61,804 nt of DNA from Patescibacteria group bacterium (GTDB lineage: Bacteria; Patescibacteriota; Patescibacteriia; UBA2591; CALHIP01), in the NCBI GenBank assembly GCA_026417895.1, contig JAOACJ010000003.1, forward strand, positions 1 to 61,804. The letters are read 5' to 3'. Under the pieces are notes generated by a model. It saw nothing but the letters and a program-made list of their open reading frames with translations. It searched no databases and was not told the origin of the DNA. Position 1 is the first letter of the stretch, and each line of letters begins with the position of its first letter. Below, one piece after another: positions 1,690-55,005 of the stretch. The translations under genes were made by a program, and so were the position numbers.

Positions 1690-3498
1690 TTATAAATATT
1701 TTTTTAATTGTTGGGTTAATTGATTCACTTCTTCGCTTAACACTTTTATTACTTCCTGATCTTTTTCTTTTTCTGCCTTTTTTAAGTTTTCACTCATTAA
1801 ATTTAATTTTTTAAAAATAAAATTCTTCTTTATTTTTTTAAAAAGGAATTCTAATTCTTTATCAACCGTTTTTTTATCCAGATTAACAAAATCTTTCTCA
1901 ATGGCTAGGATCAAAAAATCTATTGTCGATTTAGTCTCTTCGTCTAAATCTTTAATAAATTCTTCGTAGCTAATCAATTTATTCTCCAAAGAAATAAGAC
2001 TATAGCATTTTTTTAAATGGCTAAGAATTTTTTTTAATTTTTCATTCGTAAAAATTTCTTCATCTAATTCTTCGTAAAAAGAAGAAACTTGCTCGGGAAA
2101 TTTAATTAGCAACCCCAAAAATCTTTCTTGCGTCTCTAATTCTTGGTTTTTTTCTTGAATAACTGGTGTTTCTTCTTTTACTTCTGATTTTTTTTGATTA
2201 ATTTTTCTTAAACTTTCTCTTAAAATTTCATAAGAAAGATTGGCTTTTTCGGCTAACTTTTTTAACCAGAAATCTTGTTCAATCAAATTACCAATTTTAG
2301 CAATGATGGGTAAAAGAATCCTGGCGACTTTTTTCTGATCCTCAACTTGATGGGGGTTAAAATGAGTAAAGGCAGAGGAAAAATAATATTCCATAATCGG
2401 TTGAGCTCGGCTAATCGCTCCAAACCAAAGTTTTTTGTTCTCTCGAATACATTCGTCTGGATCTTTACCGGCCGGAAGTTGAATGATCTTCACATTCATT
2501 TCCTCGGTCAAAGCAATATCAATGCCCCTTTGCGTAGCTGTTTCACCAGCCGGATCTAGGTCAAAGGCTAAAAATAAATTTGAGGAATATCTTTTCAAAA
2601 TTTTTACTTGCGTTAAGGTTAGGGCTGTACCAGAGGTAGCGACAACATTTTTTGTGCCGGCTTGCCAAGCAGTAAGCAAATCCATATTGCCTTCAACCAA
2701 AATAGCAAAATTTTCTTTTTTAATTGCTAGTTTGGCCTGATTCAATCCATAAAGCAAGCGAGATTTGTTATAAATTAAAGTTTCTGGAGTATTAATATAT
2801 TTCGGCACCCCTTCTTTTTCTAAAGAAGGCAAAATCCGGCCGGAAAAGCCAACCGGCTGATTAAAGATGTCAAAAACAGGAAAAATAATTCGACCACGAA
2901 AACGGTCGTAATAATTAAAGGTTGGTTCTTGGATATTAGTTGTCGGTTCTTTAACAATCAAACCTGCTTCTTCGATGTCTTCGGTCTTAAAACCCTTTTT
3001 TGTAAGAAAGGTATAAAGAAGGTGCCTTTGGTGAGGAGCGTAGCCAATTTGCCATTCTTTAATTGTTTTTTGAGAAATTTTTCTTTCTTCAAGATATTTT
3101 CTGGCGCTTTCGCCACCTTTAGCATTTAAAAGATACCAATGGTAGTATTGAGCTGCTTCACGACAAATATCTAAAAGTTTTGTTCTTTTACTCGTCAAAT
3201 GATAATCGCGCGTTTTTAAAATAATCCCGGCTTTCTTGGCTAAAATTCTTAAAGCCTGAGGAAAGTCAACACCTTCAATTTCCATAATAAAATCAAAAAG
3301 GCCCCCTCCTTTGCCGCAACCGAAACACTTCCAAATTTGTTTTTCTGGCGAGACAAAAAAACTCGGTACTTTTTCTTTATGAAAGGGACAAAGAGCTTTC
3401 ATGTTTATCCCGGCTGGTGTAAGACGAACGTATTCAGAAACAATCTCAACTAAATCCAACTTTGCTTTTATCTCATCAATCGGACTAAGGTTGGCCAT
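1690..3498 (-). CDS. dnaG: DNA primase
   Basis: Zn finger CPFHKEK..SF and [36 protein letters not shown] and FDLDPAG. Confidence 0.98.
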
Positions 3499-3545
3499 AT
3501 TTTAAAATGAAATTATAAGGCTTAAGAATAAAAAGCCTTATTTAA

Positions 3546-3573
3546 ATTATAAATAAATAAAACATCTTGTCAA
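3546..3573 (-). promoter_or_regulatory. Sigma70 promoter of dnaG-rpoD
   Basis: Minus strand TTGACA (3573-3568), 16 nt spacer, TATAAT (3551-3546). Confidence 0.75.
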
Positions 3574-3876
3574 TTAAGAAATTTTATCTCTTCTCACGAT
3601 TAGTAAAAATCTTTGATAAAAATTTCTAAGAAAAGGAACGTTTCATCAAAAACAAGGTTTCACCTGTTTTTACTTTCGAAGCTTTCATGTTTTATTAAAA
3701 ATCTATATAAAATCCTCGCCAATCTCTTTGTGGCAACTTTACTAAATATCTATTTTACAAAGTCGTAATTGGTCCCGAAAAAGATTATTATTGCCGCCAG
3801 CAATTTTAATATCTTTGGTTGAATTTTGATGAAAAAATTTGATATACATAGAGCCATTGTATCAATTTCATCAAGC

Positions 3877-3905
3877 TTGACAAGTGTTAAAAAACATGCT
3901 TTAAT
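3877..3905 (+). promoter_or_regulatory. Sigma70 promoter of the 3926 ORF
   Basis: TTGACA, 17 nt spacer, TTTAAT with extended TG; GAGGAA SD-like motif before ATG 3926. Confidence 0.6.
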
Positions 3906-3925
3906 TTTTCGTGAGGAAATAAAAT

Positions 3926-4330
3926 ATGAACGACCCTGAGAAAGAAAAGTTTTTTCAAGAAATAAAAAATTTAAATACTCTTAATAATAGCCAGTTAATG
4001 GAAAAATTAATCGAGGCAATGAAAGTTTTTGATCAGAACTTAAAAACAAAAACGCCCGGCATAGAGTCAATAATCAAAGCCATTGATGAAAATAAAACTG
4101 CAGAAGAAATTTTACAAATGCTTAATACTCAAGAGGCGATAGAACAAAACAACCGGTTGGTTGTCGAAATTATAACCGAATTATCTTATCGAAACATGCC
4201 GGTCAATGAAATTCTTGCAGCTATCAATAAAGGTTTAACTGCAACCGAGATTTGTCAAGTCTTTGAAATTAAGCCTGATGATTTTCAGGGTCCAAAACCT
4301 AATATTCCTGATATTTCTGAATCAATGTAA
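3926..4330 (+). CDS. Hypothetical protein (134 aa, helical, acidic)
   Basis: Clean ORF with its own promoter, SD-like motif and downstream terminator; no recognisable motif. Confidence 0.75.
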   Translation: MNDPEKEKFFQEIKNLNTLNNSQLMEKLIEAMKVFDQNLKTKTPGIESIIKAIDENKTAEEILQMLNTQEAIEQNNRLVVEIITELSYRNMPVNEILAAINKGLTATEICQVFEIKPDDFQGPKPNIPDISESM

Positions 4331-4342
4331 TAAAAAATGTGC

Positions 4343-4372
4343 AAAAATAGCCAAACAATAATGGCTATTTTT
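4343..4372. terminator. Bidirectional intrinsic terminator
   Basis: AAAAATAGCCA-8 nt loop-TGGCTATTTTT between convergent units. Confidence 0.7.
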
Positions 4373-4406
4373 ATTTTTCTCCAACAAATTTTTAGGCGAT
4401 TTTTTG

Positions 4407-4631
4407 TTAAATTTTATCTTTTATTTTAAAAAGACTTGCCACCAGTTTATCATTTTCTTTTTCTAATTTTGCGATTTCTTTTTCTTTGCCTTCTAATTTT
4501 AATTGGTGGCATTTTTTAGAGATTTCAGCCAGTTTTTGATGAAGCGGATTTTGAGGGTCAAATTTGGGAATGCCAACATGCTCCATTACTGAAGTACCAC
4601 CAAATCCTCGCCCAATTGTTATCTTATATTT
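4407..4631 (-). pseudogene. C-terminal remnant of a type IIG-like restriction-modification (N6-adenine methylase) gene
   Basis: Minus frame reads GRGFGGTSVMEHVGIPKFDPQNPLHQKLAEISKKCHQLKLEGKEKEIAKLEKENDKLVASLFKIKDKI*. The IPKFDP.N.LH.KLAE.S segment resembles C-termini I recognise from such enzymes. No N-terminal body is present. Confidence 0.55.
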
Positions 4632-4663
4632 GTTTCTTAATTTAAGATAGTTTCTTAATTTAA
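4632..4663. repeat. 14-bp direct repeat pair at the junction of the MBL gene and the RM remnant
   Basis: GTTTCTTAATTTAA-GATA-GTTTCTTAATTTAA. Confidence 0.85.
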
Positions 4664-5257: not shown

Positions 5258-5271
5258 ATTTTTAATTTAAA

Positions 5272-5356
5272 CGGAGGGTGTGGGAATCGAACCCACAAAT
5301 CCCTTGCGGGATCCACGCTCTCCAGGCGTGTGCCTTACCATTCGGCGCAACCCTCC
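5272..5356 (-). tRNA. tRNA-Ser(GGA)
   Basis: Acceptor GGAGGGT/ACCCTCC, discriminator G, anticodon loop CT-GGA-GA, long variable arm, T-arm GGTTCGATTCC. Confidence 0.96.
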
Positions 5357-5456
5357 TCTTTTTTTATTTTATTTAATTTTTCAAAAAAATCAACCCTTCT
5401 TTATTTAACTATCTCTGTCTCAACGTGTTAACACGCTGGTTTATATGACAGGAAAC

Positions 5457-5520: not shown

Positions 5521-5594
5521 GGTGAAAAAAATATAAAAATAAAGAGAATAATTTTTAATTTTTAAAAAATATAAATTATTTTTCAAAAAATCAA

Positions 5595-5609: not shown

Positions 5610-8012
5610 TTATTTAATTTTTGAAATTTCTAGAGTTGTTTTTAAAATTGTATCTGGATTTAAAGAGATTGAATCAATTCCTTCTTTGACTAAAAATTTA
5701 GCAAAATCAGGAAAATCACTTGGTGCCTGACCGCAAATACCAACCTTTCGACCATAACGATGGGCGGTTTTAATTAAATGACGAATTAATTTCTTAATTG
5801 CTTCATTTCTCTCATCAAAAAGATGAGAAACTAAATCTGAATCACGGTCAAGGCCTAATGTTAGTTGTGTCAAGTCATTTGAACCAATCGAAAAACCATC
5901 AAAAATTTTAGAAAATTCTTCAGCAAAAATAATATTGGAGGGAATTTCCGCCATAACATAAACTTTTAATGGTTTAAGTCCTTTTAATTTTTTTCTTAAA
6001 CTAAATGAATCAATAATTTTTAAAACCTTCTTTCCCTCTTCCACTGTTCGACAAAAAGGAATCATCACCACAACATTATCTAAACCAAAAACTTCGCGAA
6101 CTTTTTTAATAGCTAAGCATTCTAAACCAAATGCCTCTTTAAACTTTTCATCATAATATCTTGAAGCACCGCGCCAACCAATCATCGGATTAGCCTCTTT
6201 AGGTTCATATTGAGCACCGCCGATTAAATTGGCATATTCATTGGTTTTAAAATCAGAAAATCTGACAATAACCTCTTTCGGATAAAAAGCCGCACAGATT
6301 TTACCAATACCTTCGGCTAATTTATCAATAAAATACTGCTTCTTATCTTGATAGCCAAAAGTAAGTTGATCAATTTGTTTTTTGATCTTCGGCGGTTGTT
6401 GCTTATAATTAATGAGGGCTATGGGATGTATTTTAATTTGATTGGCAATGATAAATTCCTCTCGGGCTAAACCAACGCCATCGTTAGGTAAAAAAGATAG
6501 ACTAAAAGCCTGATCGGGTTCGCCTAAATTCATCATTATTTTTATCTTCGGTCTTTTTAATTTGGCGAGATTAATTTTTCTAATTTTAAATGGCAAAAGC
6601 CCCTCATAAATAAAACCTCTTTCTCCTTCAGCACAAGAAACAGTGACTTCTTGACCATTTTTTAAAATTTTACTTGCCTTACCTGTGCCGACAACACAAG
6701 GTACACCAATTTCCCGTGAAACAATAGCGGCATGAGAGGTTCGGCCACCACTATCGGTGATAATAGCCGAAGCAATTTTCATCACTGGTTCAAAATCTGG
6801 ATTAGTTACTCTAGCCACTAGCACTTCTCCTTTTTTAAAATTAACCAACTCTTTGATATTTCTTATCACCCTCACCTTACCTTGACCAATTTTAGAACCA
6901 ACGGCTAAACCTTCAAGGATGGGTTTACATTTTTGATTTTTGATTTTTAATTTTTCTAAAACATATTCCTCAAGATAATCGACTTTTCTTCTTGAAACAA
7001 CAGTTTCCGGTCTGGCTTGTAAAATATATAACTTTTTATCTTTTCCATCTTTGGCCCATTCAATATCCATTGGTCGTCCATAGTGTTTTTCAATTAAACA
7101 AGACCATCTGGCCAAAGTTAAAATCTCTTCATCAGTTAAAACGAATTTTTTCTGTTCTTTTTTCAAAACAGCCACATTTTTTGTTCCGCCTTGATGATTA
7201 TAAATCAAGCGCCATTCTTTTGTACCCATTTTTTTCTCAATAATTGGTTGAAAGCCATTTTTTAAAGTTTTTTCAAAAACATAATATTGGTCAGGATTAA
7301 TTTTCCCTTTGACAATATTTTCTCCTAAACCATAACCAGCATTAATTAAAACGACATCAGGAAAGCCTGTTTCCGTGTCGCATGAAAACATAACACCTGA
7401 ACAAGCCAAATCGGAACGAACCATTTTTTGGACACCAACTGATAAAGCAACTTTTAAATGATCAAAACCCATATCTTCTCGATAAGAAATAGCTCGATCA
7501 GTAAAGAGAGAGGCAAGGCATTTTTTTACAGCCAAAAGCAGTTCTTTTTCACCGCGGATATTTAAAAACGACTCCTGTTGACCGGCAAAAGAAGCATTTG
7601 GCAAATCTTCAGCCGTGGCTGAAGAACGGACAGCCACGTCTAAATTTTTTGTTTTATACTTCTGACAAAGTTTTCGATAAGCCCGGATAACTTCTTTTTC
7701 CAATTCTTTTGGAAACTCCGTTTTCAAAATTAAATCTCTAATTTTCGCTCCCCTTTCTTTAAGGTTTCTGATATTTTTCCTTTCTAATCCTTTTAAAATT
7801 TTTACAATCTGAGATTTGAGATTTGATTTTTTCAAAAATTGCCAATAAAAAAAATCGGTGGTAGCAAAACCATCGGGAATATTAATCTGTTTGCCTAAGT
7901 GTCGCATCATCTCGCCCAAAGAAGCATTCTTACCGCCAACCAAGGAAATGCTTTTCATGCTTATTTCTCTGTACCAAACAATTAATTTTTTGGCCATCAT
8001 TTCATTAATCAA
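5610..8012 (-). CDS. ppsA: Phosphoenolpyruvate synthase
   Basis: VGGKNASLGEM, VAVRSSATAEDLP.ASFAGQQ, ILQARPETV, GGRTSHAAIVSRE, FSIGSNDLTQL, GICGQAPSD; true start may be a few codons downstream. Confidence 0.97.
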   Translation of the reverse strand: MINEMMAKKLIVWYREISMKSISLVGGKNASLGEMMRHLGKQINIPDGFATTDFFYWQFLKKSNLKSQIVKILKGLERKNIRNLKERGAKIRDLILKTEFPKELEKEVIRAYRKLCQKYKTKNLDVAVRSSATAEDLPNASFAGQQESFLNIRGEKELLLAVKKCLASLFTDRAISYREDMGFDHLKVALSVGVQKMVRSDLACSGVMFSCDTETGFPDVVLINAGYGLGENIVKGKINPDQYYVFEKTLKNGFQPIIEKKMGTKEWRLIYNHQGGTKNVAVLKKEQKKFVLTDEEILTLARWSCLIEKHYGRPMDIEWAKDGKDKKLYILQARPETVVSRRKVDYLEEYVLEKLKIKNQKCKPILEGLAVGSKIGQGKVRVIRNIKELVNFKKGEVLVARVTNPDFEPVMKIASAIITDSGGRTSHAAIVSREIGVPCVVGTGKASKILKNGQEVTVSCAEGERGFIYEGLLPFKIRKINLAKLKRPKIKIMMNLGEPDQAFSLSFLPNDGVGLAREEFIIANQIKIHPIALINYKQQPPKIKKQIDQLTFGYQDKKQYFIDKLAEGIGKICAAFYPKEVIVRFSDFKTNEYANLIGGAQYEPKEANPMIGWRGASRYYDEKFKEAFGLECLAIKKVREVFGLDNVVVMIPFCRTVEEGKKVLKIIDSFSLRKKLKGLKPLKVYVMAEIPSNIIFAEEFSKIFDGFSIGSNDLTQLTLGLDRDSDLVSHLFDERNEAIKKLIRHLIKTAHRYGRKVGICGQAPSDFPDFAKFLVKEGIDSISLNPDTILKTTLEISKIK

Positions 8013-9986: not shown

Positions 9987-10029
9987 TTAATTAAAAATAA
10001 AAAATTAAAAAATAAATATAAAAAGTTGT

Positions 10030-10399: not shown

Positions 10400-11710
10400 T
10401 CAAGAAATTTTTAATGAAGTTTTCCACAGGAGACCTAAACTCAACCAGAATAAAATTATACCAAAGGAAAGAGAAAAAAGCCAATGGTCAAAAAGACCGA
10501 CAACTAACAGGGGAAAGAAAATAGAATGTAGAATAGAAAATTTTGAAAGAGAATAAAATAAAATGAAAAGAAATAAAATCAAACCGAGAATCCCTAATTC
10601 GGCTAAAACGAGTAAATAGATATTAGGTATTGGTTGGTAATCCCAAACAGAAAGGTTCGGATATTTTTGGGCAAGGTGAAGGGTATAATTTCCCAAACCC
10701 ACACCAAAGAGAAAATTTTCTTGAATCACTTTTTGACTTTGTTGAAAACTGGAAATTCTTTCGCTCAGAGAAATTTTCTCTAGTCTTCCCTTTAGTTGGG
10801 CTCTTGTTATCAAATCATGAACAAAAAAACCACCAAAGATTAAAGCAGCAATCAGGACTAAACCAAAAAATTCAAAAAATGGTGTCCGAAGATGGGCTAA
10901 ATTCTTTTTTAACAACACTAAACTAAAAATAATAATAGTTAAAATTAAAGAAACCAATCCTGCCCTTGAGTAAGTTAACAAAAGACCGATCGCAATCAGA
11001 GAGGTGGCTAAAAGAAAAAAATATTTTTGCCAAGTTTTTTGAGTGAGAAAATAAGCAAGGAAGGCGATAAAGATAACAAAAACTAAAAAACCAGCCAGGA
11101 TATTAGGATGAGGCAATGAACCATAAATTCTTAAAAGTCGACCACCACCCACCTCAATAACGGAAACACCCGCCTGGGCTGGATCTTGTGCTGCCATACC
11201 TAGCCATTTTGAAGAAAAAACTTTTTGTTGAATAAATTGACTTAAACCCAAGAAAAATTGAACCAAACCTGCTAAAACTAAAGTAAAACCAGCTTTTATC
11301 AAATCAAAATTAATTTTCTGAAGAAGAAAAAACAAAATTACGCTTTGACAAATCCTTAACCACCAGTAAAAAGATAGGTTTCTATCTTTTGCCCAGAAAG
11401 TAGAAGAAATAGTAAAGAGCAAAAAAATTATTACAAGAATATAGAATTTAGGATTTTGAGTTTTAAATTTTGAATTTGTTTGAAAATTAGAAATTGAAAA
11501 TTGAAAATTTTTTGAAATCAGTTTCTCTAAACAAAATAATAGTAAAAGAATAATGAAAACAATATCAATCGCGTATAAAGAAATCGTTCCCCATTCCCAA
11601 TATCCCCCATTCAAAACCCCTTCTTTCAAAATCAACCTCGTCTGCCAAGGCAATAAGAAAAGAAAAAGATAGAAAAAGTATTCAACAATAAGATCTAATG
11701 ACCTTTTCAT
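10400..11710 (-). CDS. O-antigen ligase/polymerase-family membrane protein
   Basis: Multiple TM segments, R.YG..PHPN.LAG, LLLTYSRAG, ER and GVGLGNY, H-replaced PNIYLLVLAELG. Confidence 0.85.
   Translation of the reverse strand: MKRSLDLIVEYFFYLFLFLLPWQTRLILKEGVLNGGYWEWGTISLYAIDIVFIILLLLFCLEKLISKNFQFSISNFQTNSKFKTQNPKFYILVIIFLLFTISSTFWAKDRNLSFYWWLRICQSVILFFLLQKINFDLIKAGFTLVLAGLVQFFLGLSQFIQQKVFSSKWLGMAAQDPAQAGVSVIEVGGGRLLRIYGSLPHPNILAGFLVFVIFIAFLAYFLTQKTWQKYFFLLATSLIAIGLLLTYSRAGLVSLILTIIIFSLVLLKKNLAHLRTPFFEFFGLVLIAALIFGGFFVHDLITRAQLKGRLEKISLSERISSFQQSQKVIQENFLFGVGLGNYTLHLAQKYPNLSVWDYQPIPNIYLLVLAELGILGLILFLFILFYSLSKFSILHSIFFPLLVVGLFDHWLFSLSFGIILFWLSLGLLWKTSLKIS
11443..11510. repeat. Two oppositely oriented heptamer arrays in frame within the O-antigen ligase gene
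   Basis: (AGAATTT AGGATTT TGAGTTT TAAATTT TGAATTT) then (AAAATTA GAAATTG AAAATTG AAAATTT); encodes NFQFSISNFQTNSKFKTQNPKF. Confidence 0.8.
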
Positions 11711-14995: not shown

Positions 14996-16687
<1,692 letters not shown>

Positions 16688-16698
16688 TTACGATAAAA

Positions 16699-19614
16699 TT
16701 ATCTTTCTTTTTTGCCTAAAACGAGAAATAGTTTTTCTCTTTCAATCTCTATTTCTTTTTTTTGTTTATTTAACAGTTTTTCCCTTCTTTCTATCTTGCT
16801 GGCCAGTGTCTGTTTTTTAAGGATGGCTAAATTTTTTTCGATAATTTTTGTCAATTTTTTTGAATCTGTTTGATAATAAATCTTGACTTTATCTTTGAGG
16901 GTCAATTTTTTCTCTTTTCGCCAAAAATTAATTTGTCGTACCAATTCTCTCAGCACCCCTTCTTCTCGGAGTTGGGGTGTTAAGGTAAAATCAAGTTCTA
17001 CTGATTTTTCGGTCGTTGGTTGATAGATAATTTTTTTAATATTTAATTCATCCAAGATGATCTGTTCCAAATTTCTCTCTAATTTCTTGAGTTGAGGAAA
17101 TTTAATGGTAATTTTATTCAATGGCTGACGAAGAGGAATTTTGTTTTTCGCTCGTTGTTCAAGACCAAGGTGGGTAATTTCCCTAATTATTTTCATTTGA
17201 TCAATAATTTTTTGTTGAAACCAGTCTTGGCGCAGAGAGGGCCAATTTTCTAAATGGACAGATGTGGCTGGTCCTTTTATTGTTTGATAAATATACTCGG
17301 CTAAAAAGGGAGTAAAAGGAGCTAATATTTTAGCTAGATTAAGGATGATGTATCTCAAAGTTTTTAAGGCTGTTAATTTTATCTTTCTTTTTTCACTTTT
17401 AAATCTTTCACGGCTTCGCCGTAAATACCAAGTCGATAGTTCATCAATAAAATTAGCTAGAGAGCGGGCGGCATTGGTAATCTCATATCGCTCTAAACAA
17501 TCACTAACATCTTTAATTAAAAGATTAAATTTAGCAACAATCCAGCGATCAAGAACATGAACAAGATCTTGAGTAGTAAGATTAGTAATTTTTATTTTCC
17601 CTCTATACATCTCGTAAAAAGAAACAACATTCCACAAAATCAAAAAAACTTTTTTCATCACCTCCTCAACTTGTTTTTCAGAAAAACATTTTGCTTCACC
17701 GGGCTGGTTAATGGTATAAAAATAAAAACGTAAAGTATCAGCCCCATATTGATTAATAATTTTTTCTGGTTCAACAACATTACCTCTCGATTTACTCATT
17801 TTTTCTCCTTTCTCATCTAAAACTAATCCATGGCAAATAACGTTTTTGTAGGCTGGTCCTTTTTCTAATAAAGTGGAAATGGCTAAAAGAGTATAAAACC
17901 AACCGCGGGTTTGATCTATACCTTCAGCGATATAGTCGGCCGGAAAAACTTCATTTTTTTCATATCTTTTTTTATTTTCAAAAGGATAATGGTGTTGGGC
18001 AAAAGGCATGGCCCCGGAGTCAAACCAGCAATCAATAACTTCCGGCACTCTTTTCATTTTTCCACCGCATTTTTCACACTGGAAGACAAATTCATCAATA
18101 TAGGGCCGATGTGGATCTTGTACTTTGCGACCACTTAATTTTTCTAATTCTTCAAACGAACCAATCACTTTGGTATTATCGCATTTTTGAGATTCGAAAT
18201 TCGAGGTTTGAGATTTACCAGTTTGGCACTGCCAAACTGGTAAAGGTGTTCCCCAGTATCTTTCTCTTGATAAAGCCCAATCTTTCACTTCCTTAAGCCA
18301 AACACCGAAACGTCCTTCTTTGATAAAAGAGGGAACCCAGTTTATTTTTTCATTGTTTTTAATCAATTCTTCTTTTATCTTCGGCTCACTCATTCTAATA
18401 AACCATGATTTTTTCGCGTAATATAAAAGTGACGAATCGCAACGCCAACAAAATGGATAATCATGATGAATTTTTTCTAATTTCCATAAAATATTTCTCT
18501 TTTTTAAATCATCAATCACATCTTTGTCTGCCTCTTTAACAAACTTCCCTTCACCAATAATTCCTTTAGCCATATTTCCATCAGGATTGACAGTCATTAA
18601 GATGGGAAAGGTAGGTAAATTTTGAATTTTGAATCTTGAATTTTGAATTTTAATCACTTCCATATCTTCTTCACCGAAAGCTGGAGCAATATGGACAATA
18701 CCCGTTCCGTCTTCCATTGAAACAAACTCGCCAGAGATAACTTCATAAATCCGTCCTTCAACTTGAGCAGGATAAAGTCCTTCATATTTTTGACCAATTA
18801 AATCTTTACCTTGATATTTTTCAACAATTTCAAAGTTTTCTAAAACATTAAGTCGTGGTTCAGCCAAGATAAAATATTCATCATTAACTTTTACTTTAAC
18901 ATAAGTCGCTCCTGGATGAATGGCTAAAGCAACGTTGCCTGGCAATGTCCAAGGCGTGGTCGTCCAGACAAAAAAATAAGTATTGGGGTCATCAATTTTT
19001 TTAAATTTAAGATAAAGAGAAATGTCTTCAACATTTTCATAACCCAGAGCTACTTCATGGGAAGAAAGGGTCGTCCCACAACGCGGACAATGAGGAACAA
19101 CTTTGTAATCTTGATAAAGTAAACCCTTTTGCCAAATCTGTTTTAGAATCCACCAAACTGTTTCAATATAATAATTCTCATAAGTAATGTAAGCATTTTT
19201 GTAATCCAGCCAAAAGGCAATTCTTTCAGAAAAATTTTCCCATTCTTTTTTATATTGCCAAACCGATTCTTTACATTTCTTATTAAACTTAGCAATACCA
19301 TATTTTTCAATCTCCGGTTTTCCGCGCAAGCCCAATTTTTTTTCCATCTCCAATTCGACTGGTAAACCATGCGTATCCCAACCAGCCTTTCTTTCAACAT
19401 AATAACCTTTCATTGTCTTATAACGACAAATGATATCTTTGAAAATTCGAGATAAAACATGATGAATACCAGGTAGGGCATTGGCGGTTGGGGGGCCTTC
19501 AAAAAAGACAAACGGTCTTCCCCTTTTTGTCTTCTTTAAAGTTTTTTCAAAAATTTTACTTCTTCGCCAGAAGGCTAAGATTTTCTTTTCAATTTGTGGA
19601 AGGTTAATAGACAT
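16699..19614 (-). CDS. ileS: Isoleucyl-tRNA synthetase (type 2, archaeal/eukaryote-like)
   Basis: EGPPTAN..PGIHH, GWDTHGLPVE, WTTTPWTLP, SRERYWGTPLP, EGIDQTRGWFY, KMSKS; lacks the type 1 C-terminal Zn finger. Confidence 0.97.
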   Translation of the reverse strand: MSINLPQIEKKILAFWRRSKIFEKTLKKTKRGRPFVFFEGPPTANALPGIHHVLSRIFKDIICRYKTMKGYYVERKAGWDTHGLPVELEMEKKLGLRGKPEIEKYGIAKFNKKCKESVWQYKKEWENFSERIAFWLDYKNAYITYENYYIETVWWILKQIWQKGLLYQDYKVVPHCPRCGTTLSSHEVALGYENVEDISLYLKFKKIDDPNTYFFVWTTTPWTLPGNVALAIHPGATYVKVKVNDEYFILAEPRLNVLENFEIVEKYQGKDLIGQKYEGLYPAQVEGRIYEVISGEFVSMEDGTGIVHIAPAFGEEDMEVIKIQNSRFKIQNLPTFPILMTVNPDGNMAKGIIGEGKFVKEADKDVIDDLKKRNILWKLEKIHHDYPFCWRCDSSLLYYAKKSWFIRMSEPKIKEELIKNNEKINWVPSFIKEGRFGVWLKEVKDWALSRERYWGTPLPVWQCQTGKSQTSNFESQKCDNTKVIGSFEELEKLSGRKVQDPHRPYIDEFVFQCEKCGGKMKRVPEVIDCWFDSGAMPFAQHHYPFENKKRYEKNEVFPADYIAEGIDQTRGWFYTLLAISTLLEKGPAYKNVICHGLVLDEKGEKMSKSRGNVVEPEKIINQYGADTLRFYFYTINQPGEAKCFSEKQVEEVMKKVFLILWNVVSFYEMYRGKIKITNLTTQDLVHVLDRWIVAKFNLLIKDVSDCLERYEITNAARSLANFIDELSTWYLRRSRERFKSEKRKIKLTALKTLRYIILNLAKILAPFTPFLAEYIYQTIKGPATSVHLENWPSLRQDWFQQKIIDQMKIIREITHLGLEQRAKNKIPLRQPLNKITIKFPQLKKLERNLEQIILDELNIKKIIYQPTTEKSVELDFTLTPQLREEGVLRELVRQINFWRKEKKLTLKDKVKIYYQTDSKKLTKIIEKNLAILKKQTLASKIERREKLLNKQKKEIEIEREKLFLVLGKKER
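18186..18216. repeat. Heptamer array in frame in ileS, between two Cys residues
   Basis: TTTGAGA TTCGAAA TTCGAGG TTTGAGA; encodes KSQTSNFESQK. Confidence 0.75.
18620..18654. repeat. Heptamer array in frame in ileS
   Basis: TTTTGAA TTTTGAA TCTTGAA TTTTGAA TTTTAAT; encodes KIQNSRFKIQN. Confidence 0.85.
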
Positions 19615-26401: not shown

Positions 26402-26468
26402 CATATTTTGTTAAAATAATTTAAAAATATTTTTTAATTTTTTATTTGTATTTTTAATTTTACTTGTA

Positions 26469-30616: not shown

Positions 30617-30623
30617 ATAAAGA

Positions 30624-30674
30624 TTAGTTATTAGTTATTAGTTATTTGGTTATTTGGTTATTGGTTATTGGTTA
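30624..30674. repeat. Heptamer/octamer array spanning the iscS stop and the iscS-iscU spacer
   Basis: TTAGTTA x3, TTTGGTTA x2, TTGGTTA x2. Confidence 0.92.
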
Positions 30675-40609: not shown

Positions 40610-42193
40610 ATGACTTCGCACAAACAAAAAATTATCAAAATTATTCAAGAACTCTCTCAAAAAAAGTTTCAATCTGGCGAGAGTTTTTTATCTTTGTTCA
40701 GAAAATTAACTAAGAAATATCAAATATCACCCCCAAGTTATGTCGAAATTCTCTCGTCTTATAAATTACTGCGATCGCAGAAAAAAATAAGACGTTGTTT
40801 ATTTTTTGAGGAAATGTTAAAAAAAAGACCGGTTCGCTCTCTTTCTGGTGTAGCCGTTGTCTCTGTTTTGACCAAACCTTATCCCTGTCCTGGCCAATGC
40901 CTTTATTGTCCAACTGAAAAGGGCTTTCCAAAAAGTTATTTGGCTGGCGAGCCAGCCGCCGAAAGAGCTCGTCTTTTGAACTATAATCCTTATTTACAGG
41001 TTAAAAAAAGGATTGAAACTTTACAAAAAACAGGACATTCAACCGACAAAATCGAATTGATTATTATCGGCGCCTCCTGGAGCGCTTATCCAAAAAGATA
41101 TCAAGAATGGTTTATTAAAAGATGTTTTGATGGCGCTAATTTTTCAGCAAGTAAAAAATTAACGGAGGCACAGAAAAAAAATGAAAAAGCAAAAAATAGA
41201 ATTATTGGTATTAGTGTGGAAACACGACCGGATTTAATCAGTTTAAAAGAAATAAAAAGAATGCGGGAATTGGGAATAACGAAGGTTGAGTTAGGTGTCC
41301 AAACACTCGATGAAAAAATTTTAACTAAGAATCAGCGTGGTCATGGTTTAAAAGAAATTGTTGAAGCAACAAAATTGTTGAGAAATGCTGGATTCAAAAT
41401 TTGCTATCATCTTATGCCCGGACTTTATGGCTCGACACCCCAAAAAGATTTGGTAGTTTTTAAAAAATTATTTTCTGATTCAAATTTTCGACCAGATTAC
41501 TTAAAAATTTATCCTTGTGTGGTAACCAAGGGTTCAAAACTTTATCAATTATGGAAAAGAGGAAAATACCAACCTTACGACGATAAAACTTTAATCAATT
41601 TATTGGTCCAGATAAAAAAAATTGTCCCTCCTTACGTGCGAATCATCCGAATCTTCCGCGATATTCCTTCACCAAAAATTTTTGGCGGAACAAAGATCTC
41701 CAATTTACGCGAGGTTGTCAAAAAAGAAATGGCAAAAAGGGGGTTGAAATGTCAATGCATCCGTTGTCGTGAAATTAAAAATTTAAAATTAAAAATTAAA
41801 AATTTAATTCTGGTCAAAAGAGAATATCAGGCTAATAATGGTAAAGAAATTTTTCTTTCTTTCGAGGATAAAAAAAATGACAAGATTCTTGCTTTTCTTC
41901 GTCTCTATCTGCCTCAATCTTCTATTTTAAACTCTATCTTCAAGGTTCTCAAAAAATCAGCTATCATTCGTGAACTCCACAGCTACGGCGAAATAGTAGA
42001 AATCGGTAAAAGAAAAAAGGGGGCCACCCAGCATCAAAACTTAGGCAAAAAACTTGTCCGCAAAGCCGAGCAACTGGCAAAAAAAATTGGTGCTAAAAAA
42101 ATAGCTGTTATTTCCGGCGTCGGCGCTCGCCAATATTGGCGAAAAATTGGTTATAGACTTCAACAAAGTTATATGGTCAAAAATATTGGATAA
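40610..42193 (+). CDS. elp3: Elp3-family radical SAM/KAT tRNA U34 carboxymethyltransferase
   Basis: RSLSGVAVVSV, CPGQCLYCP, PKSYL.GEPA, ETRPD, VELGVQT, PDYLKIYP, RIFRDIP, C.CIRCRE, IRELH.YG, QH..LG, VISGVG.RQYWRK.GY. Confidence 0.95.
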   Translation: MTSHKQKIIKIIQELSQKKFQSGESFLSLFRKLTKKYQISPPSYVEILSSYKLLRSQKKIRRCLFFEEMLKKRPVRSLSGVAVVSVLTKPYPCPGQCLYCPTEKGFPKSYLAGEPAAERARLLNYNPYLQVKKRIETLQKTGHSTDKIELIIIGASWSAYPKRYQEWFIKRCFDGANFSASKKLTEAQKKNEKAKNRIIGISVETRPDLISLKEIKRMRELGITKVELGVQTLDEKILTKNQRGHGLKEIVEATKLLRNAGFKICYHLMPGLYGSTPQKDLVVFKKLFSDSNFRPDYLKIYPCVVTKGSKLYQLWKRGKYQPYDDKTLINLLVQIKKIVPPYVRIIRIFRDIPSPKIFGGTKISNLREVVKKEMAKRGLKCQCIRCREIKNLKLKIKNLILVKREYQANNGKEIFLSFEDKKNDKILAFLRLYLPQSSILNSIFKVLKKSAIIRELHSYGEIVEIGKRKKGATQHQNLGKKLVRKAEQLAKKIGAKKIAVISGVGARQYWRKIGYRLQQSYMVKNIG

Positions 42194-44654: not shown

Positions 44655-45632
44655 TTATATTTTTTTCAAAATTCTTCCCAATTGATAGAGTCTATACCAA
44701 AAATAGTTAAAAATAGAGTCAAAAGTACCAGGATATTCTTTGATTTCTCCTCCAAACCCTTTTTTAAAACGCGTTACACCTGGCCATTTTTTTTCATCAA
44801 TCCCCCAAAAATCATAATATTTTAAACATAATCGTTTAGCTTCTTTGATTGCTGTCCAATGTAATAGGTAAGGAGCCATTACATTTCGGTGTTGATGATC
44901 AGAAGCGCCGTGAAGATAGGTAGCGGTATCAGCAAAAAAAATCATTAAATTACCGGCAATTATTTTTCCTTGATATTCAGCGAAAAAAAGTTTGATAAAA
45001 TTTTTATCTAATCGAAACATTTTTCGATAGTAATTAAAAGGGTGAGTCTGGAACCTATCCCGCTGGGCTGTCTGGGATAAAAGCTTTAAAAAGATTTCAA
45101 TCTCTTCTTCACTTTGACCAATTTTGATTCTCACTCCCTTCTTCTCTGCCAATTTTATATTATACCTTGTTTTTGGATGCATATTTTCTAAAATTTCCTT
45201 TTCGGATTTGGTCAAATCAAGTAAAATAGTCTTTGAAGGTTGGAGGTCGTTAATTTTTTTAAACGAAAAATTGAAAATTGAAACTTGAAAATTGTCTAGT
45301 GGCTCGAAACGCAGAAAGATAATATTCTCTTTTTTGGCCAAATCGTTAATTTTTCTAAAAAATATTTTTATTGTCTCAATATTATTCTCTCTTAAAATAG
45401 GTCCGCGCGGACAATATAGATAGCTTTTCTTTATTGGTAATAACATTCTTATCAGAAGAGTGATGCCAATTAATTGATCGTTTTTAAAAAATCCTAATCG
45501 CCAAATTTTTCGACCTAAGCTTTCTTGAAAATCACCCCATTCCCAACTTTGAAGAAATGGCGCCATTTCAAAGGAAGAAATAAAAGTCTGCCAAACTTCT
45601 TTTTCTTTAATTTCTTTAATTTCCATAGCCAA
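44655..45632 (-). CDS. FemABX/MurM-family lipid II aminoacyl transferase
   Basis: FLQSWEWG, YCPRGP, KTRYNI.LAEKKGV, YLHGAS, YDFWGI, GVTRFKKGFGG. Confidence 0.92.
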   Translation of the reverse strand: MAMEIKEIKEKEVWQTFISSFEMAPFLQSWEWGDFQESLGRKIWRLGFFKNDQLIGITLLIRMLLPIKKSYLYCPRGPILRENNIETIKIFFRKINDLAKKENIIFLRFEPLDNFQVSIFNFSFKKINDLQPSKTILLDLTKSEKEILENMHPKTRYNIKLAEKKGVRIKIGQSEEEIEIFLKLLSQTAQRDRFQTHPFNYYRKMFRLDKNFIKLFFAEYQGKIIAGNLMIFFADTATYLHGASDHQHRNVMAPYLLHWTAIKEAKRLCLKYYDFWGIDEKKWPGVTRFKKGFGGEIKEYPGTFDSIFNYFWYRLYQLGRILKKI

Positions 45633-50136: not shown

Positions 50137-51377
50137 TCAAAGTAGGGTGGTATTATTTCTATATTTTTCTAGTCCTTTTTTTAAAATCTTCATTGCTTCT
50201 TTAAGTTTTGAACTTGATAAAACAAAGGCAATGCGAAATTCGTCTCTACCACCCTTTGGCGTGGCATAGAAACCAGTCCCTGGGGCAACTAAAACTGTTT
50301 TTCCTTGATCGGCAAATTTCGTCAACAACCACTCAGCAAAATGATCCGAATCTTTGAGCCATGGAATTTTGACGAATAAATAAAAAGCCCCTTTCGGCTC
50401 AACAGTAATTACCTCGGGAATAGTCCTCATCTCTTGAAAGACTATATCTCTTCTTTTTTTATATTCGAAAATAATTTTTTTAAGATATTTCTGAGAATTC
50501 TCTAAAAGAGGAACAACGGCTAACTGTTCAACCATTGGTAAAGAAAGTCTGGCTTGGGCAAATTTTATCGCCGACTCAATAACTCTTTTATTCTTACTGG
50601 CTAAAACACCAATTCGCGTCCCACAGGCCGAGAATTTTTTGAAACACTGTCTACTAAAATTACCCACTGAGAAATCTCTGGAAAATTCATCATTGAATAA
50701 TGTTTTTCGCCATCATAAACAAACTCACGATAAGTCTCGTCGGTTATAATAAAGAGGTTATATTTTTTAGCAATTTTAGAAATTATGTTCAATTCCTCTT
50801 TCTTATAAACAGTACCGGTCGGATTGTTTGGATTACAAATAATGATACCTTTTGTTTTTCCATTAATTTTTCTTTCAATTTCTTTTCTATCGGGCAAATG
50901 AAAACCATTTTCTGCTAAAGTCTTAATTGGTTTTAACTTAATACCAGTCATTGAGGCATAACCATTATAATTAGTATAGAAAGGTTCAAAAACAATAATT
51001 TCTTCGCCTGGTTGACAAATGGTAGCAAAGGCAAATAGAATGGCTTCACTAGCACCAATCGTCACCACCACCTCTGAAAGGCTAAAATCAATTTTTACCC
51101 CCTTAAAATATTTCTGTCAAGCCCTTTTCACTGCAAGTAAACCATCAGAAGGTGTATAAGCCAAAACTTTTTCTTTGAAGTTTCTAATTCTCGCTAAAAT
51201 TTCTTTTGGCGTTTCTAAGTCCGGTTGACCAATATGAACCTCAAAGACTTTAATACTTTTCTTTTTTATTTTTTCTAAAAGTGGCACAAATTTTCTGATC
51301 GGTGAGAATTGGGTCTCCTTAGCGCGAAACAAGATCTCTCTTCTGACTAAATTTTTATATTTTTCAGGCATATGCAT
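50137..51377 (-). pseudogene. PLP-dependent class I/II aminotransferase, split into three ORFs
   Basis: IGQPD, Y.PS.G, VT.GASEA, EPFY.NY, NPNNPTG, DETYRE, SKKFSACG.RIG, PKGAFY. There is an in-frame TGA at 51119-51117 and a 1-nt deletion in the A6 run (plus-strand T 50635-50640). Confidence 0.9.
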
Positions 51378-51398
51378 TTTTTTGTGAAGAATTGCTGT

Positions 51399-51707: not shown

Positions 51708-51713
51708 AACTTA

Positions 51714-52190: not shown

Positions 52191-52280
52191 AACATTTTTA
52201 AAAATAATTATTTATCATTTCTTGTTCGACTAAATAAAACAATCGTTCAAAATAATAGATGGATATTTTTATATCTTAAC

Positions 52281-53018
52281 TCAATAACCAATAGCAAGTC
52301 GCTCAATTAAAAAACTGTGGAAACCTTTACTCTTCATTGCTTCTTGGGTCCTTTGATAATCATATTCTACCCGATGATATTCTAAAGTCAAAAATTCGTT
52401 GTCAAAAATAATAAAACTGGCTTTTGGATTTTGATCACGTGGCTGGCCAACTGAACCGGGATTAATAATATAACGAGAATTTTTTTCAAATTTTAGAAAC
52501 GTTTTATCCGGCGGAAACCGAAATTGATAAATTTTGTTATCTCTTTTTTCAAAAATCATAGGCAAATGAGAATGGCCAACAAAACAAATCTTTTCTTGAA
52601 AAAAACAGAAATTTTCTTTGGCTTGATAAATTTCCATTAGATATTCCCAGATTGGATCACGAATTGAACCATGGGTTAGAATAATATTTTCTTCTGGTTT
52701 TAAAGTTAAGGGTAGATTTTCTAAAAATTTTTTGTTTTCTTGAGAAATTTCAGAAGTATTAATTTTTATTGCTAAAGCAGCATAAGGATTAAAAAATTCT
52801 ACGCCAATTTTTTTGATAACTGCTAAATCATGATTACCAGCTAAAGAAATTATTTTTTTCTTTCTAATCAATTCAATACATTCATTCGGATTTGGCCCAT
52901 AACCAACAATATCACCTAGGTGCCAAATTTTTTCAATTTTCTTTTTTTCTAATTCAAAGATTACTGCCTTACAAGCTTCTAAATTTGAATGGATATCTGA
53001 TAAAATACCTATTTTCAC
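52281..53018 (-). CDS. Calcineurin-like metallophosphoesterase
   Basis: SDIHSN, LGDIVGYG, GNHD, THGS, GHSH, INPGSVGQPRD; GTG start overlaps the upstream TGA. Confidence 0.93.
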   Translation of the reverse strand: MKIGILSDIHSNLEACKAVIFELEKKKIEKIWHLGDIVGYGPNPNECIELIRKKKIISLAGNHDLAVIKKIGVEFFNPYAALAIKINTSEISQENKKFLENLPLTLKPEENIILTHGSIRDPIWEYLMEIYQAKENFCFFQEKICFVGHSHLPMIFEKRDNKIYQFRFPPDKTFLKFEKNSRYIINPGSVGQPRDQNPKASFIIFDNEFLTLEYHRVEYDYQRTQEAMKSKGFHSFLIERLAIGY

Positions 53019-53569
53019 TCTTTTATTTTGATGGTCGTAAAAATATAAATCTCTGTTTCAGGATCACACCAGGCATCAGCTGGTAGTCCTGCCTTACGGA
53101 GACATAAAACATTTAGAAATTCTTCTAAATTGTAATTAAATTCTTTCGCCACTTCTGGTAAAAAGGTGCCGCCTTGAAAACCGCGTTTGATAATAACACC
53201 ATGCTCACCTAATTTGATCTGAGAGGGATGAGAAATTTTTTTTAGAGGAGAAAGGATGGAAATTTCGATTTTTATTTTTGATAATTCTTCTAAAGTGATG
53301 GGTAAAAAGCGGTTGTCTCCGACAGCCGCCGCCACAGCCATTCTCGCGACTGCTTCCCCTAAAGGATATTGGGGTTCTAAATGACCAATACAACCTCGTA
53401 ATTCTTCATCTTTTTTTAAAGTAACAAAAACGGCTCTTTTTTCTTTCAGTTTTTCAGATCCACTAGTTTGAATTTGAGGTATTTTTCTATATTTCAAATA
53501 AAATTCAATTGAATTTCGCGCTATTTTCAACAATGCTTTTCTTTCTTTTTCTGAAAAATTATTTTCCAT
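53015..53569 (-). CDS. AMMECR1-domain protein (AmmeMemoRadiSam protein A-like)
   Basis: FVTLKK..ELRGCIG, AA..D.RF.P, EISILS, GTFLPEVA, LC.RKAGL..DAW. Confidence 0.92.
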   Translation of the reverse strand: MENNFSEKERKALLKIARNSIEFYLKYRKIPQIQTSGSEKLKEKRAVFVTLKKDEELRGCIGHLEPQYPLGEAVARMAVAAAVGDNRFLPITLEELSKIKIEISILSPLKKISHPSQIKLGEHGVIIKRGFQGGTFLPEVAKEFNYNLEEFLNVLCLRKAGLPADAWCDPETEIYIFTTIKIKE

Positions 53570-53584
53570 TTTTTTAATTATATC

Positions 53585-54481
53585 TTAATCAGCAAAACGA
53601 TAAAGACCATATTTTTTGGCTAAATTAATGGCTGCTTGATATTCCTTTAAAATAATACGACGAGAAAGCTCTGGACATTGAAAAGCCTTATAGCAAGGAT
53701 AATATTGGTCCATAATATTAACAAATGTTTCTTTTGAAATTTCTTCAGCTAAAAATTTCATAATTTTTTCTGTCCCGGCCAAATCATTTGGTAGAATTAA
53801 ATGTCGAACAATCAACCCTTTTTTAGCCACACCATTTTCAGTAATTAAATCTCCCACCTGCCGATGCATTTCTTTGATTGCTTCTTTCATTATTGCAAAA
53901 TAATTTGGAGCTGAAGAATATTTTATTGCTCTTTGATTATCGAAATACTTTGCATCGGGCATATAAATATCAATAATTCCCTCTAAAACTTTTAAAGTTT
54001 CAACCGAATCATAGCCATTTGAGTTATAAACTAAAGGAATTTTTAATTTTTTCTCAATGGCTATTTCTAAGGCTTCTAAAATTTGTGGCACTTGTGGGGT
54101 GGGAGTAACTAAATTGATATTATGACAACCAATTTTTTGTAGATAAATCATTATTTCAGCTAAATTTTTAGCAGAAACCTCCTGACCATAATCTAATTGA
54201 GAAATTTCATAATTTTGACAAAAAATACAAGCCAAATTGCATGAAGTAAAAAAAATTGTCCCCGAGCCATAAACACCAACCAAAAATTTTTCTTCGCCAA
54301 AATGAGGATGAAAGGATGAAACTTTTGCTTTTCGACCTAAGCGACAAAAGCCTTTTTCATTTTTTAATCGATTAATCTTACATTTTCTTGGACAGATTTG
54401 GCAAGGATTTAAAAAAGCAATAGCTCTTTCAACCCTCTTTCTTAACTCTTTCTTCGACAAATTAAGATAAGAAGGAAACAT
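53585..54481 (-). CDS. Radical SAM protein, PflX-like family
   Basis: C.ICPRKC..NR, HFGEE, GSGTIFF, CNLACIFCQN, NINLVTPT, DIYMPDAKY, VRHLILP, NIMDQY.P. Confidence 0.9.
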   Translation of the reverse strand: MFPSYLNLSKKELRKRVERAIAFLNPCQICPRKCKINRLKNEKGFCRLGRKAKVSSFHPHFGEEKFLVGVYGSGTIFFTSCNLACIFCQNYEISQLDYGQEVSAKNLAEIMIYLQKIGCHNINLVTPTPQVPQILEALEIAIEKKLKIPLVYNSNGYDSVETLKVLEGIIDIYMPDAKYFDNQRAIKYSSAPNYFAIMKEAIKEMHRQVGDLITENGVAKKGLIVRHLILPNDLAGTEKIMKFLAEEISKETFVNIMDQYYPCYKAFQCPELSRRIILKEYQAAINLAKKYGLYRFAD

Positions 54482-54492
54482 TGATAAAGATT

Positions 54493-55005
54493 TTAATTTT
54501 TAATTTTTAATTTTCTAAATTTGTTAATTTCGTAGATAGCAATGCCAGTCGCCACTGCTACATTTAAAGATTCTTTCTTGCCATACATTGGCAGATAAAT
54601 AATTTTATCAGCTCTTTTTAATAAACTCTGACAAACGCCCTTGACTTCGTTGCCAACAATTAAAAGTAAAGGAAATTTTGGTCTTAATTTTGTATAGCAA
54701 ATACTTTTTTTGGTTTGTTCTAAAGCAACAATAAAAAAATCTTCCTTTTTTAATTTTTCCACGATTCGCCAACTCTGCCAACAGTGTTCCCAAGGAACTA
54801 TTTTTTCGGCACCTAAAGCTGTCTTGTGTATTTTGATATTTAATTCTCTTTCTCTTTCTTTTCCTGTTTGCCGGCTAGCAAGAGAGGTAATACCGCCAAG
54901 ATAAATTTTATCAATACCAGCTGCTTCAGCAGTCCGAAAAATTGCCCCAACATTAAAAATCGAACGAAGATTATCTAAAAGAAGATAAAATCTTTGGTCG
55001 GCCAT
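54493..55005 (-). CDS. TrmH/SpoU-family RNA 2'-O-methyltransferase
   Basis: LDNLRS.FNVGAIFRTA.A.G, KTALGAE, GNEVKG, LPMYGKKESLNVAVA.GIA.YE. Confidence 0.93.
   Translation of the reverse strand: MADQRFYLLLDNLRSIFNVGAIFRTAEAAGIDKIYLGGITSLASRQTGKERERELNIKIHKTALGAEKIVPWEHCWQSWRIVEKLKKEDFFIVALEQTKKSICYTKLRPKFPLLLIVGNEVKGVCQSLLKRADKIIYLPMYGKKESLNVAVATGIAIYEINKFRKLKIKN

Follow-up and report, generated by a model that had tools for sequence, protein, structure and literature searches.

The DNA considered here, called the window below, is a stretch of 61,804 nucleotides (nt) of contig JAOACJ010000003.1 (assembly GCA_026417895.1) from a Patescibacteria group bacterium, a lineage of the Candidate Phyla Radiation (CPR). 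Its GC content is 33%, about 90% of it is coding, and its genes and spacers carry tandem arrays with a unit of seven nucleotides. An original prediction, made from the letters alone, had described these heptamer arrays as a selfish or slippage-amplified repeat system inserted in frame in essential genes. In our analysis the arrays were called with Tandem Repeats Finder (TRF) and read directly on the gene strand, and the host genes were identified by Pfam. All host genes lie on the minus strand except elp3, which is on the plus strand, and all arrays given below were reported by TRF unless stated otherwise.

Two arrays are located in tgt, namely site B (15222-15283), which consists of (AAAATTC)n in 8.9 copies with one interruption (TRF score 78), and site A (15573-15596), a degenerate (AAATTCA)3.4 read as NSEFKIKK. 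Two more are located in ileS. Site 1 (18618-18651; (AAAATTC)4.9, TRF score 61) encodes IKIQNSRFKIQNL, while site 2 (18186-18216) was recognised by eye, without a TRF call, and is made of about 4.4-4.7 degenerate copies (AAATCTC/AAACCTC/GAATTTC/GAATCTC) that encode GKSQTSNFESQK inside a CxxC motif. In the N-terminal loop of an O-antigen ligase family protein (Wzy_C), (AATTTTC)4.3 is followed by a degenerate (AAATTCA)6, together encoding NFQFSISNFQTNSKFKTQNPKF (11436-11509); TRF gave 6.0 copies at 11436-11477 and 4.3 copies at 11480-11509. The remaining hosts are ppsA, with (AAAAATC/AAAAATT)3.9 in an interdomain linker (6929-6955, KLKIKNQK), elp3, with (AAATTAA)4.7 in the linker after a CxxC (41772-41804, EIKNLKLKIKNL), a femAB-family gene with (AATTTTC)4.0 (45267-45294, NFQVSIFNF), and a SpoU/TrmH-family methylase gene, where (AAATTAA)5.3 spans the C-terminal tail, the stop codon and the spacer (54491-54530). 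These nine sites had all been listed in the original prediction and were recovered by TRF or by direct reading. Two others on its list were not confirmed: in the dnaG segment (2921-2948) TRF called no array of period 7, the segment contains no 7-nt array, and its residues align without gaps to the Aquifex primase 2au3, and the supposed ppsA array at 7808-7828 amounts to (AAATCTC)2.4 (7810-7826), which shows no indel against the phosphoenolpyruvate (PEP) synthase 2ols. Several arrays had been overlooked. They comprise (AAAAATC)2.4 at the C-terminus of an Eco57I/MmeI-like methylase gene (57581-57597, QKIKNQ), a composite (ATTAGTT)3 (ATTTGGTT)2 (ATTGGTT)2 of 7.1 copies in the nifS-nifU spacer (30623-30674, TRF score 65), an intergenic A-rich period-7/8 array between groES and groEL (9989-10024), and further intergenic arrays at 322-344, 5549-5565 and 26428-26461.

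Read on the plus strand, the ligase arrays, (GAATTTT)n and (GAAAATT)n, form a quasi-palindrome in which 6/7 positions of each unit can pair. A hairpin built from these two adjacent arrays (11436-11509) was considered and set aside, the predicted energy of -7 kcal/mol being not significant (z -1.5). The same 'mirror' relation recurs at tgt site B between the unit of the window and that of a syntenic relative (L001, see below). In the Rfam scan only tRNAs and tmRNA were detected, and no family matched the arrays.

TRF returned 21 period-7 rows in the window, among which eight had a score of at least 45 with 82-95% matches. As in microsatellites, the units of the arrays stand head to tail, in at least three copies and with high identity. 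The original prediction had named a codon-shuffled control beforehand as the result that could overturn it. Codons were permuted within every gene in 100 rounds, with the spacers left unshuffled, and the eight high-scoring arrays compared with a mean of 1.0 and a maximum of 2; the residual array of the shuffled sequences is due to the unshuffled spacers. For all period-7 rows the shuffles gave a mean of 7.7 and a maximum of 12. Exact runs of at least three units numbered four at period 7, with the longest being 31 nt, and zero at periods 5, 6 and 8-12. The frame-neutral periods 6 and 9 were likewise not enriched at high score in the codon-shuffle comparison, indicating that the bias toward period 7 is mutational rather than selective. 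The excess of period-7 arrays is therefore genuine and specific to that period, and the prediction passed its own test on this point. The units of the window arrays rank 2, 5, 7 and 14 among 1171 classes of background 7-mers.

The arrays inside genes follow a simple pattern with respect to the reading frame. On the sense strand the units are AAAATTC (both tgt sites, ileS and the ligase), AATTTTC (ligase and femAB), AAAAATC (ppsA and the methylase), AAATCTC-like (ileS site 2 and ppsA) and AAATTAA (elp3 and SpoU). Since 7 and 3 are coprime, all frames traverse an identical cycle of 21 nt, so that each unit specifies a single cyclic heptapeptide. Thus (AAAATTC)3 yields KIQNSKF in every frame, and other units yield NFQFSIF, KNQKSKI and KLKIKN*. 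The encoded peptides had been described as permutations of one another, which is correct within one unit but not between units. The sense-strand unit is free of stop codons in 11/15 coding arrays, and in 9 of these 11 the complement holds a stop. The four coding arrays with a stop-bearing sense unit are either short (2.1 and 2.6 copies) or interrupted or degenerate. In elp3, two variant units AAATTTA occur exactly at the positions where an in-frame TAA would fall. In the SpoU gene the TAA of the unit itself is used as the stop codon (..KLKIKN*), and in the nifS-nifU spacer, where the gene-strand unit contains TAA, the array provides the stop codon of nifS. Arrays in spacers or at gene edges account for 6/21 period-7 rows (29%), within the 10% of the window that is non-coding; their units hold a stop on at least one strand in 6/6 cases and on both strands in three (322, 5549 and 54491). 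Every array inside the genes of the window is in the ON register and keeps a long open reading frame (ORF) open.

One broken gene in the window was examined as a possible heptamer frameshift. A pyridoxal phosphate (PLP)-dependent aminotransferase (50137-51377, minus strand) is split into three ORFs by an in-frame TGA near 51118 and, near 50640, by a frameshift of -1 within a run of A6, past which its conserved SKxFSxxGxRxG motif continues in the other frame. The heptamer explanation was rejected given the nature of these breaks, and the gene is either a decaying pseudogene or the product of a sequence error, unconnected with the heptamer arrays.

The sites occupied in proteins are insertions in permissive loops in some cases and variable linkers or termini in others. 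The segment encoded by tgt site B is absent from non-CPR orthologs in the alignment and is thus an insertion. In an AlphaFold2 model built with 120 homologs, it lies at the tip of the beta hairpin E284-288/E305-309, with a predicted local distance difference test (pLDDT) value of 64 for the insert block compared with a model mean of 93. The loop is expanded to 16-21 amino acids (aa) in almost all of 120 CPR homologs. In these homologs it has a 7-residue periodicity of 0.156, compared with 0.085 in shuffles (maximum 0.103), its lengths show local peaks at 13, 20 and 27 aa, and its peptide types are discordant with the tree. GC-richer inserts are nested inside the heptamer-derived Tgt loop in L004, P0010, P0011, P0039, P0030 and P0066, with a tandem duplication of TQINADQDADKRRYL in P0039, indicating that the same loop continues to accept insertions.

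In IleRS, comparison with the Thermus thermophilus enzyme (1ile) showed that site 1 is a 7+3 aa insertion in the editing-domain region and that site 2 is a 12-aa insertion between the two Cys of a CxxC knuckle. These cysteines are presumably zinc ligands. Among distant IleRS representatives in which the motif was located, site 1 was uninserted in 33/37 (identity of at most 59%) and a plain CxxC was present at site 2 in 40/54. Many CPR IleRS proteins of about 1150-1270 aa (P0124, P0125, P0127 and P0134) contain, just after CxxC/VIGS, an insertion of about 200-250 residues bearing RHG(E/K)(S/A)E, a motif typical of histidine phosphatase (phosphoglycerate-mutase-like) domains; the window IleRS lacks it. 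The Tgt and IleRS arrays thus agree with the predicted tolerated loop insertions, which is not the case for dnaG and ppsA 7810. At three further sites the alignments suggest that the array replaces variable linker sequence and adds no clear loop. The ppsA array at 6929 aligns with a linker in 2ols and is flanked by two small gaps, one of 4 aa in 2ols immediately upstream and one of 1 aa in the query immediately downstream; the elp3 array lies in a variable region where the query is shorter than the archaeal Elp3 6iaz; and the femAB array falls in a variable region that aligns poorly with 6snr. The SpoU array forms a C-terminal tail.

The ileS-tgt neighbourhood is kept in four MAG (metagenome-assembled genome) contigs (L001, L002, L128 and L129), allowing arrays to be compared at orthologous sites. 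The nearest relatives of the window Tgt and IleRS are Patescibacteria MAGs at 70-77% identity, the range that the four contigs span for IleRS, and a search of 5.8 billion proteins gave no relative whose Tgt identity exceeds 77%. Identity at four-fold sites was 0.37-0.40, compared with 0.31 expected from composition, so synonymous sites are close to saturation. At ileS site 1, an insert of equal length (4.7-4.9 copies) is nevertheless present in all five genomes, with AAAATTC units in the window, AAAACTC in L128 and L129, and a mixture in L001 and L002; L004 lacks the insert. Array units at tgt site B are AAATTCA in the window, ATTTTCA in L001 and mixed in L129, with a length difference of 12 nt, and the peptides of the window (KIQNSKF) and L001 (SIFNFQF) are wholly unlike. 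The orthologs of tgt site A are (AAATTAA)4.7 in L128 and L129 and (AAATTTA)4.7 in L001. At ileS site 2, a plain CxxC is found in L129 and L002, 1.7 copies in L001 (AAAGTCAAAAGT) and 4.7 copies in L128, the last two differing by exactly 3 units; the whole block is thus either present, absent or intermediate among genomes whose nearest relation to the window is 77% identity. Copy number at a shared locus therefore varies among relatives (ileS site 2 and tgt site B), as it does in microsatellites. Since orthologous sites retain arrays while the units change, the arrays appear to turn over in place rather than to arrive by separate insertions. Judged from these sequence comparisons, the sites appear to be long-lived, and their arrays seem to have been repeatedly contracted, re-expanded and homogenised.

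Two of the records compared, L003 and L004, are titled 'uncultured Gammaproteobacteria' and encode a Tgt 59-64% identical to the CPR Tgt of the window, with the CPR-type loop, so that their taxonomic labels are probably wrong. Several 'binchicken' MAGs bear similar titles (e.g., L014, L025, L075 and L086); the Tgt comparison covered L003 and L004.

Heptamer arrays of this kind are widespread. An exact scan for (AATTTTG)4, equivalent to (CAAAATT)4, was carried out with one genome per species, and the figures that follow are from the matches listed. They included Nostocales, Bacteroidota, many Patescibacteria, Planctomycetota, Acidobacteriota, Chloroflexota and others. The lengths of (CAAAATT)n had a mode of 32-33 nt, and at least three loci were present in one Planctomycetota MAG. 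A composition-matched permuted control heptamer, (CAAATAT)4, was similarly distributed across phyla among the matches listed, being rich in CPR genomes and including archaea, so the CAAAATT unit is not special. With the trigger arrays masked, 1.76 Mb of loci fetched from many phyla contained 198 arrays of period 7, 80 of period 14, 55 of period 21 and at most 29 of any other period, and dozens of units, GC-rich ones included, formed arrays. For the control unit, arrays of 33-34 nt made up 23/36 of those inside ORFs and 14/70 of those outside (Fisher p = 1.2e-5). This length mode, being confined to ORF arrays, reflects frame selection and not the size of an element, and it is expected if a seed of 1.7 copies can gain only three units at once inside a gene. 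For CAAAATT itself, coding and non-coding length distributions were indistinguishable; its 32-nt peak outside ORFs comes mostly from a multi-copy composite family of Nostocales. In that family (e.g., L009, L023, L069, L090 and L093), (GGGGAxx)n is followed by AAATC, by exactly AATT(CAAAATT)4 and by AAAGAAYTTCTGCC. In GC-rich or non-CPR records (L030, L060, L074, L102, L127 and L013), inverted pairs of (AATTTTG)n and (CAAAATT)n are separated by spacers of 9-70 nt. Such pairs would form register-slippable hairpins in intergenic DNA, and a single MAG of Planctomycetota contains three or more of these loci.

The only public sequencing run containing the window sequence is a hot-spring metagenome (run X1), which is stored as contigs broken at the arrays. 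In this run, a summed contig depth of about 14x climbs to about 140-240x at the ileS array (18603-18676) and to about 2000x at the elp3 array (41768-41815). Identical heptamer arrays are present on dozens of unrelated contigs of the same metagenome, suggesting that heptamer repeats are common in that community.

Our results are probably best explained by heptanucleotide microsatellites that evolve under a coding filter, and not by a mobile element. Seeds of about 1.7 copies, that is, direct repeats of 4-6 nt at 7-nt spacing, would arise from words common in an AT-rich genome, and would be amplified and continually made uniform again as strands slip or exchange unequally while DNA is replicated or repaired. 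The amplification would have an intrinsic and strong preference for the 7-nt register, one that is lineage-wide and seen in other phyla too. In a genome that is 90% coding, selection would then filter the arrays inside genes, retaining those whose unit has no sense-strand stop in any frame, whose length changes by a net multiple of 3 nt (in practice by 21 nt, which equals three units or 7 aa), and whose site is a surface loop, an interdomain linker or a terminus. Units containing a stop would be restricted to spacers or would serve as the gene's own stop codon. Once established, an array would keep its site for a very long time while unit sequence and copy number turn over. The sequences directly show the excess of arrays, its restriction to one period, the stop-free units kept in frame, the position in loops and the persistence of orthologous arrays with changing units. 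We infer slippage as the driver, and growth in three-unit steps, from the patterns described above. The original alternative of a selfish or slippage-amplified system is therefore supported for its second half, since the arrays behave as slippage-type tandem repeats, and not for its first, given the unconserved flanks, the lack of target duplications and the equal spread of the control heptamer.

Several observations weigh against this interpretation. Single-unit slips would be frameshifts in essential genes, so homogenisation must rely on rarer 21-nt steps, on compensated events or on conversion. The preference for 7 nt is left without a cause if the arrays are ordinary microsatellites. The AT-rich (CAAAATT)n occurs at several loci in genomes whose array-bearing loci have 58-64% GC, where seeding from frequent words cannot apply, and CAAAATT arrays preferentially begin and end at AATT. 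In addition, the T/C pattern at ileS site 1 could partly be due to parallel AT-biased substitution combined with peptide constraint, and for the turnover of units the tgt sites are stronger evidence than ileS site 1. Instead of being passive microsatellites, heptamer arrays could be the footprint of a dedicated process that acts in the 7-nt register and is shared by 'heptamer-prone' lineages (CPR, Nostocales, Bacteroidota and scattered others). Such a process could be a property of some enzyme of replication or repair, or else an activity that converts or inserts sequence; we consider it unlikely. If it exists, arrays would be made even in GC-rich genomes and kept perfect beyond the lifetime of synonymous sites, and they would toggle by 21 nt inside genes, giving IleRS and Tgt reversible 7-residue variants in loop length.

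A selfish or horizontally spreading mini-element, in which some factor inserts pre-formed arrays of about 32-33 nt and the in-frame copies in core genes are survivors, would account for the exact (CAAAATT)4 across many phyla among the matches listed, including the loci of 58-64% GC, for the modal length and the AATT ends, for the several copies in some genomes such as the Planctomycetota MAG with three loci, and for the discordance of Tgt loop peptides with the tree. The array also occurs on 24 viral contigs, although these matches are uninformative on spread, and horizontal transfer has been proposed for TAACTGA repeats as well (PMC4679880). A discrete cross-phylum element AATT(CAAAATT)4 of 32 nt was suggested by the length mode and the ends, and we rejected it as a general explanation because the permuted control is as widespread among the matches listed, the 33-34 nt mode of the control is confined to ORFs, and the 32-nt non-ORF peak is supplied mostly by the Nostocales composite. 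Moreover, arrays in the same genomes are made of dozens of different units, the flanks of 12 window arrays share only chance 8-11-mers, no terminal repeats or target duplications were seen in the window, the units differ between loci, and arrays persist at orthologous sites across synonymously saturated relatives. No partner gene emerged either: neither a transposase nor any other candidate was found among the window ORFs or in the surroundings of 120 arrays by motif scans. This includes the association with four-helix-bundle/GxxExxY genes (23S intervening sequence (IVS) proteins) that the original prediction had proposed to test, for which nothing was found in the window (ORF translations and motif scan), beside 120 arrays (motif scans, which are not profile searches) or by an NCBIfam scan of 10 small ORFs, the only ones scanned. 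Such an element thus seems decidedly improbable. Retention of the arrays for a function, either as peptide loops such as the hairpin extension of Tgt or as nucleic-acid elements (binding one cold-shock or S1-type protein at each heptamer, pausing translation or pairing into hairpins), is, with both forms taken jointly, rather improbable. It would agree with near-perfect repeats that outlast synonymous saturation, with the conserved length of ileS site 1, with a Tgt insert of 16-21 aa kept in almost all of 120 CPR homologs and with inverted pairs, the would-be hairpins, often found in GC-rich genomes; binding of heptamers by CspB is also discussed in PMC4679880. Against this, the units are many and unrelated, as are the proteins, spacers and termini that hold them, the Tgt insert is predicted to be poorly ordered, and ileS site 2 is dispensable in close relatives, where a plain CxxC is present. 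The complete replacement of a unit at the same site (KIQNSKF versus SIFNFQF) means that the peptide is not conserved, and at the nucleic-acid level there was no Rfam match and the one local quasi-palindrome, in the ligase, was not significant.

Contingency loci, at which copy-number slips toggle genes off and on as in neuO, would share with that gene a coding heptanucleotide array that is read through only in the right register (PMC13001214), and the hosts include two genes with surface or modification roles (Wzy_C ligase and Eco57I-like methylase). Phase variation is nonetheless very improbable here, since the hosts are for the most part essential housekeeping genes present in a single copy (ileS, tgt, ppsA and elp3), in which an OFF state would be lethal or costly, copy numbers are low (3-5), and all window arrays are in the ON register. 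Chance low complexity due to AT-rich codon usage would suit a genome of 33% GC and does describe the weak dnaG and ppsA 7810 cases, but for the main arrays it is excluded by the codon-shuffle controls. An assembly artefact conflicts with the recurrence of arrays at orthologous sites in independently assembled MAGs, and either explanation conflicts with the long ORFs that the arrays keep open; together these two are hardly credible.

Reports of heptanucleotide repeats in bacteria go back to 1990. In that year Mazel et al. are said to have described the short tandemly repeated repetitive (STRR) heptamers of heterocystous cyanobacteria, reportedly with the unit sequences STRR1-3 and a mainly intergenic location. 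The unit TTGGTTA of the array at 30623-30674 differs by one base from TTGGTCA, which we take to be the STRR2 unit. Rickettsia palindromic elements, reportedly described by Ogata et al. in 2000, are said to be 100-150 bp long, conserved in sequence, regarded as mobile and located in frame in protein genes. Like them, the window arrays are repeat DNA tolerated as in-frame surface insertions in essential proteins of a reduced genome, but they lack palindromic ends, and nothing in their sequence is conserved apart from the repeat unit. GGGGA(C/T)T/GGGAATC repeats are known from Nostoc and Xanthomonas (PMC4692102). With these and the STRR heptamers the window arrays share dispersal of tandem heptamers, several unit families, variation in length and sequence among relatives and occasional inverted pairs. 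The known families are GC-richer and mainly intergenic, whereas the window arrays are AT-rich, mostly coding and found in Patescibacteria. The likeness to STRR heptamers seen in the original prediction is therefore sound, with (CAAAATT)n itself abundant in Nostocales; the window arrays work like STRR but are not members of them.

According to PMC4692102 and PMC4679880, the survey of Mrazek, Guo and Shah (2007) dealt with long simple sequence repeats (SSRs) with units of 5-11 nt, found heptamers to be the most abundant class in many bacteria and proposed polymerase slippage as their cause; as also summarised there, coding DNA disfavours units of a length not divisible by three. As far as that work is relayed in these two papers, the over-representation of period 7 and the presence of many units per genome are common to both studies, while the SSRs of the survey were mostly from large-genome non-pathogens and the present arrays are in frame in essential genes of a reduced CPR genome and can be traced at orthologous sites. 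The TAACTGA direct repeats of Beggiatoaceae, Cyanobacteria and Bacteroidetes occur mainly in 5' untranslated regions, for which a regulatory role was suggested (MacGregor, 2015; PMC4679880). They likewise form sets of 2-6 copies across distant phyla with no mobilising mechanism found. As in the window, the stop-containing orientation is excluded from genes and the reverse is translatable (LSVISYQ) (PMC4679880). Scrambled TAACTGA versions form no repeats in that genome, whereas our scrambled control was as widespread across the species collection among the matches listed. In neuO of the E. coli K1 prophage CUS-3, slippage of (AAGACTC)n has been demonstrated, with read-through when the copy number is divisible by 3 (PMC13001214). 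Similar to the window arrays, it is a coding 7-nt array in which three units equal 7 aa and only the right register gives a full-length protein, and its unit closely resembles the AAAACTC that builds ileS arrays in the relatives (KTQDSRL versus KTQNSKL). However, neuO is dispensable and phase-variable, with 3-53 copies at the 5' end, compared with low in-frame copy numbers in internal loops of essential genes here.

Literature searches with the array unit and the peptide strings returned nothing relevant, and in a limited search we found no paper on orthologous persistence with unit turnover in CPR essential genes. The arrays do not reveal a new kind of system. What they add to the known heptamer repeats, which have hardly been studied (PMC4692102), is a CPR host, residence in essential genes, a signature of three-unit quantisation, and persistence past synonymous saturation with turnover of the unit. 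Because the arrays lie inside essential genes of a gene-dense CPR genome, selection exposes the rules they follow, namely a stop-free sense unit, three-unit steps and sites in loops or linkers. The ileS site 1 and the tgt loop provide concrete loci for measuring 7-nt slippage. Heptamer arrays account for part of the odd low-complexity inserts in CPR proteins, which bears on the annotation, alignment and structure prediction of these proteins.

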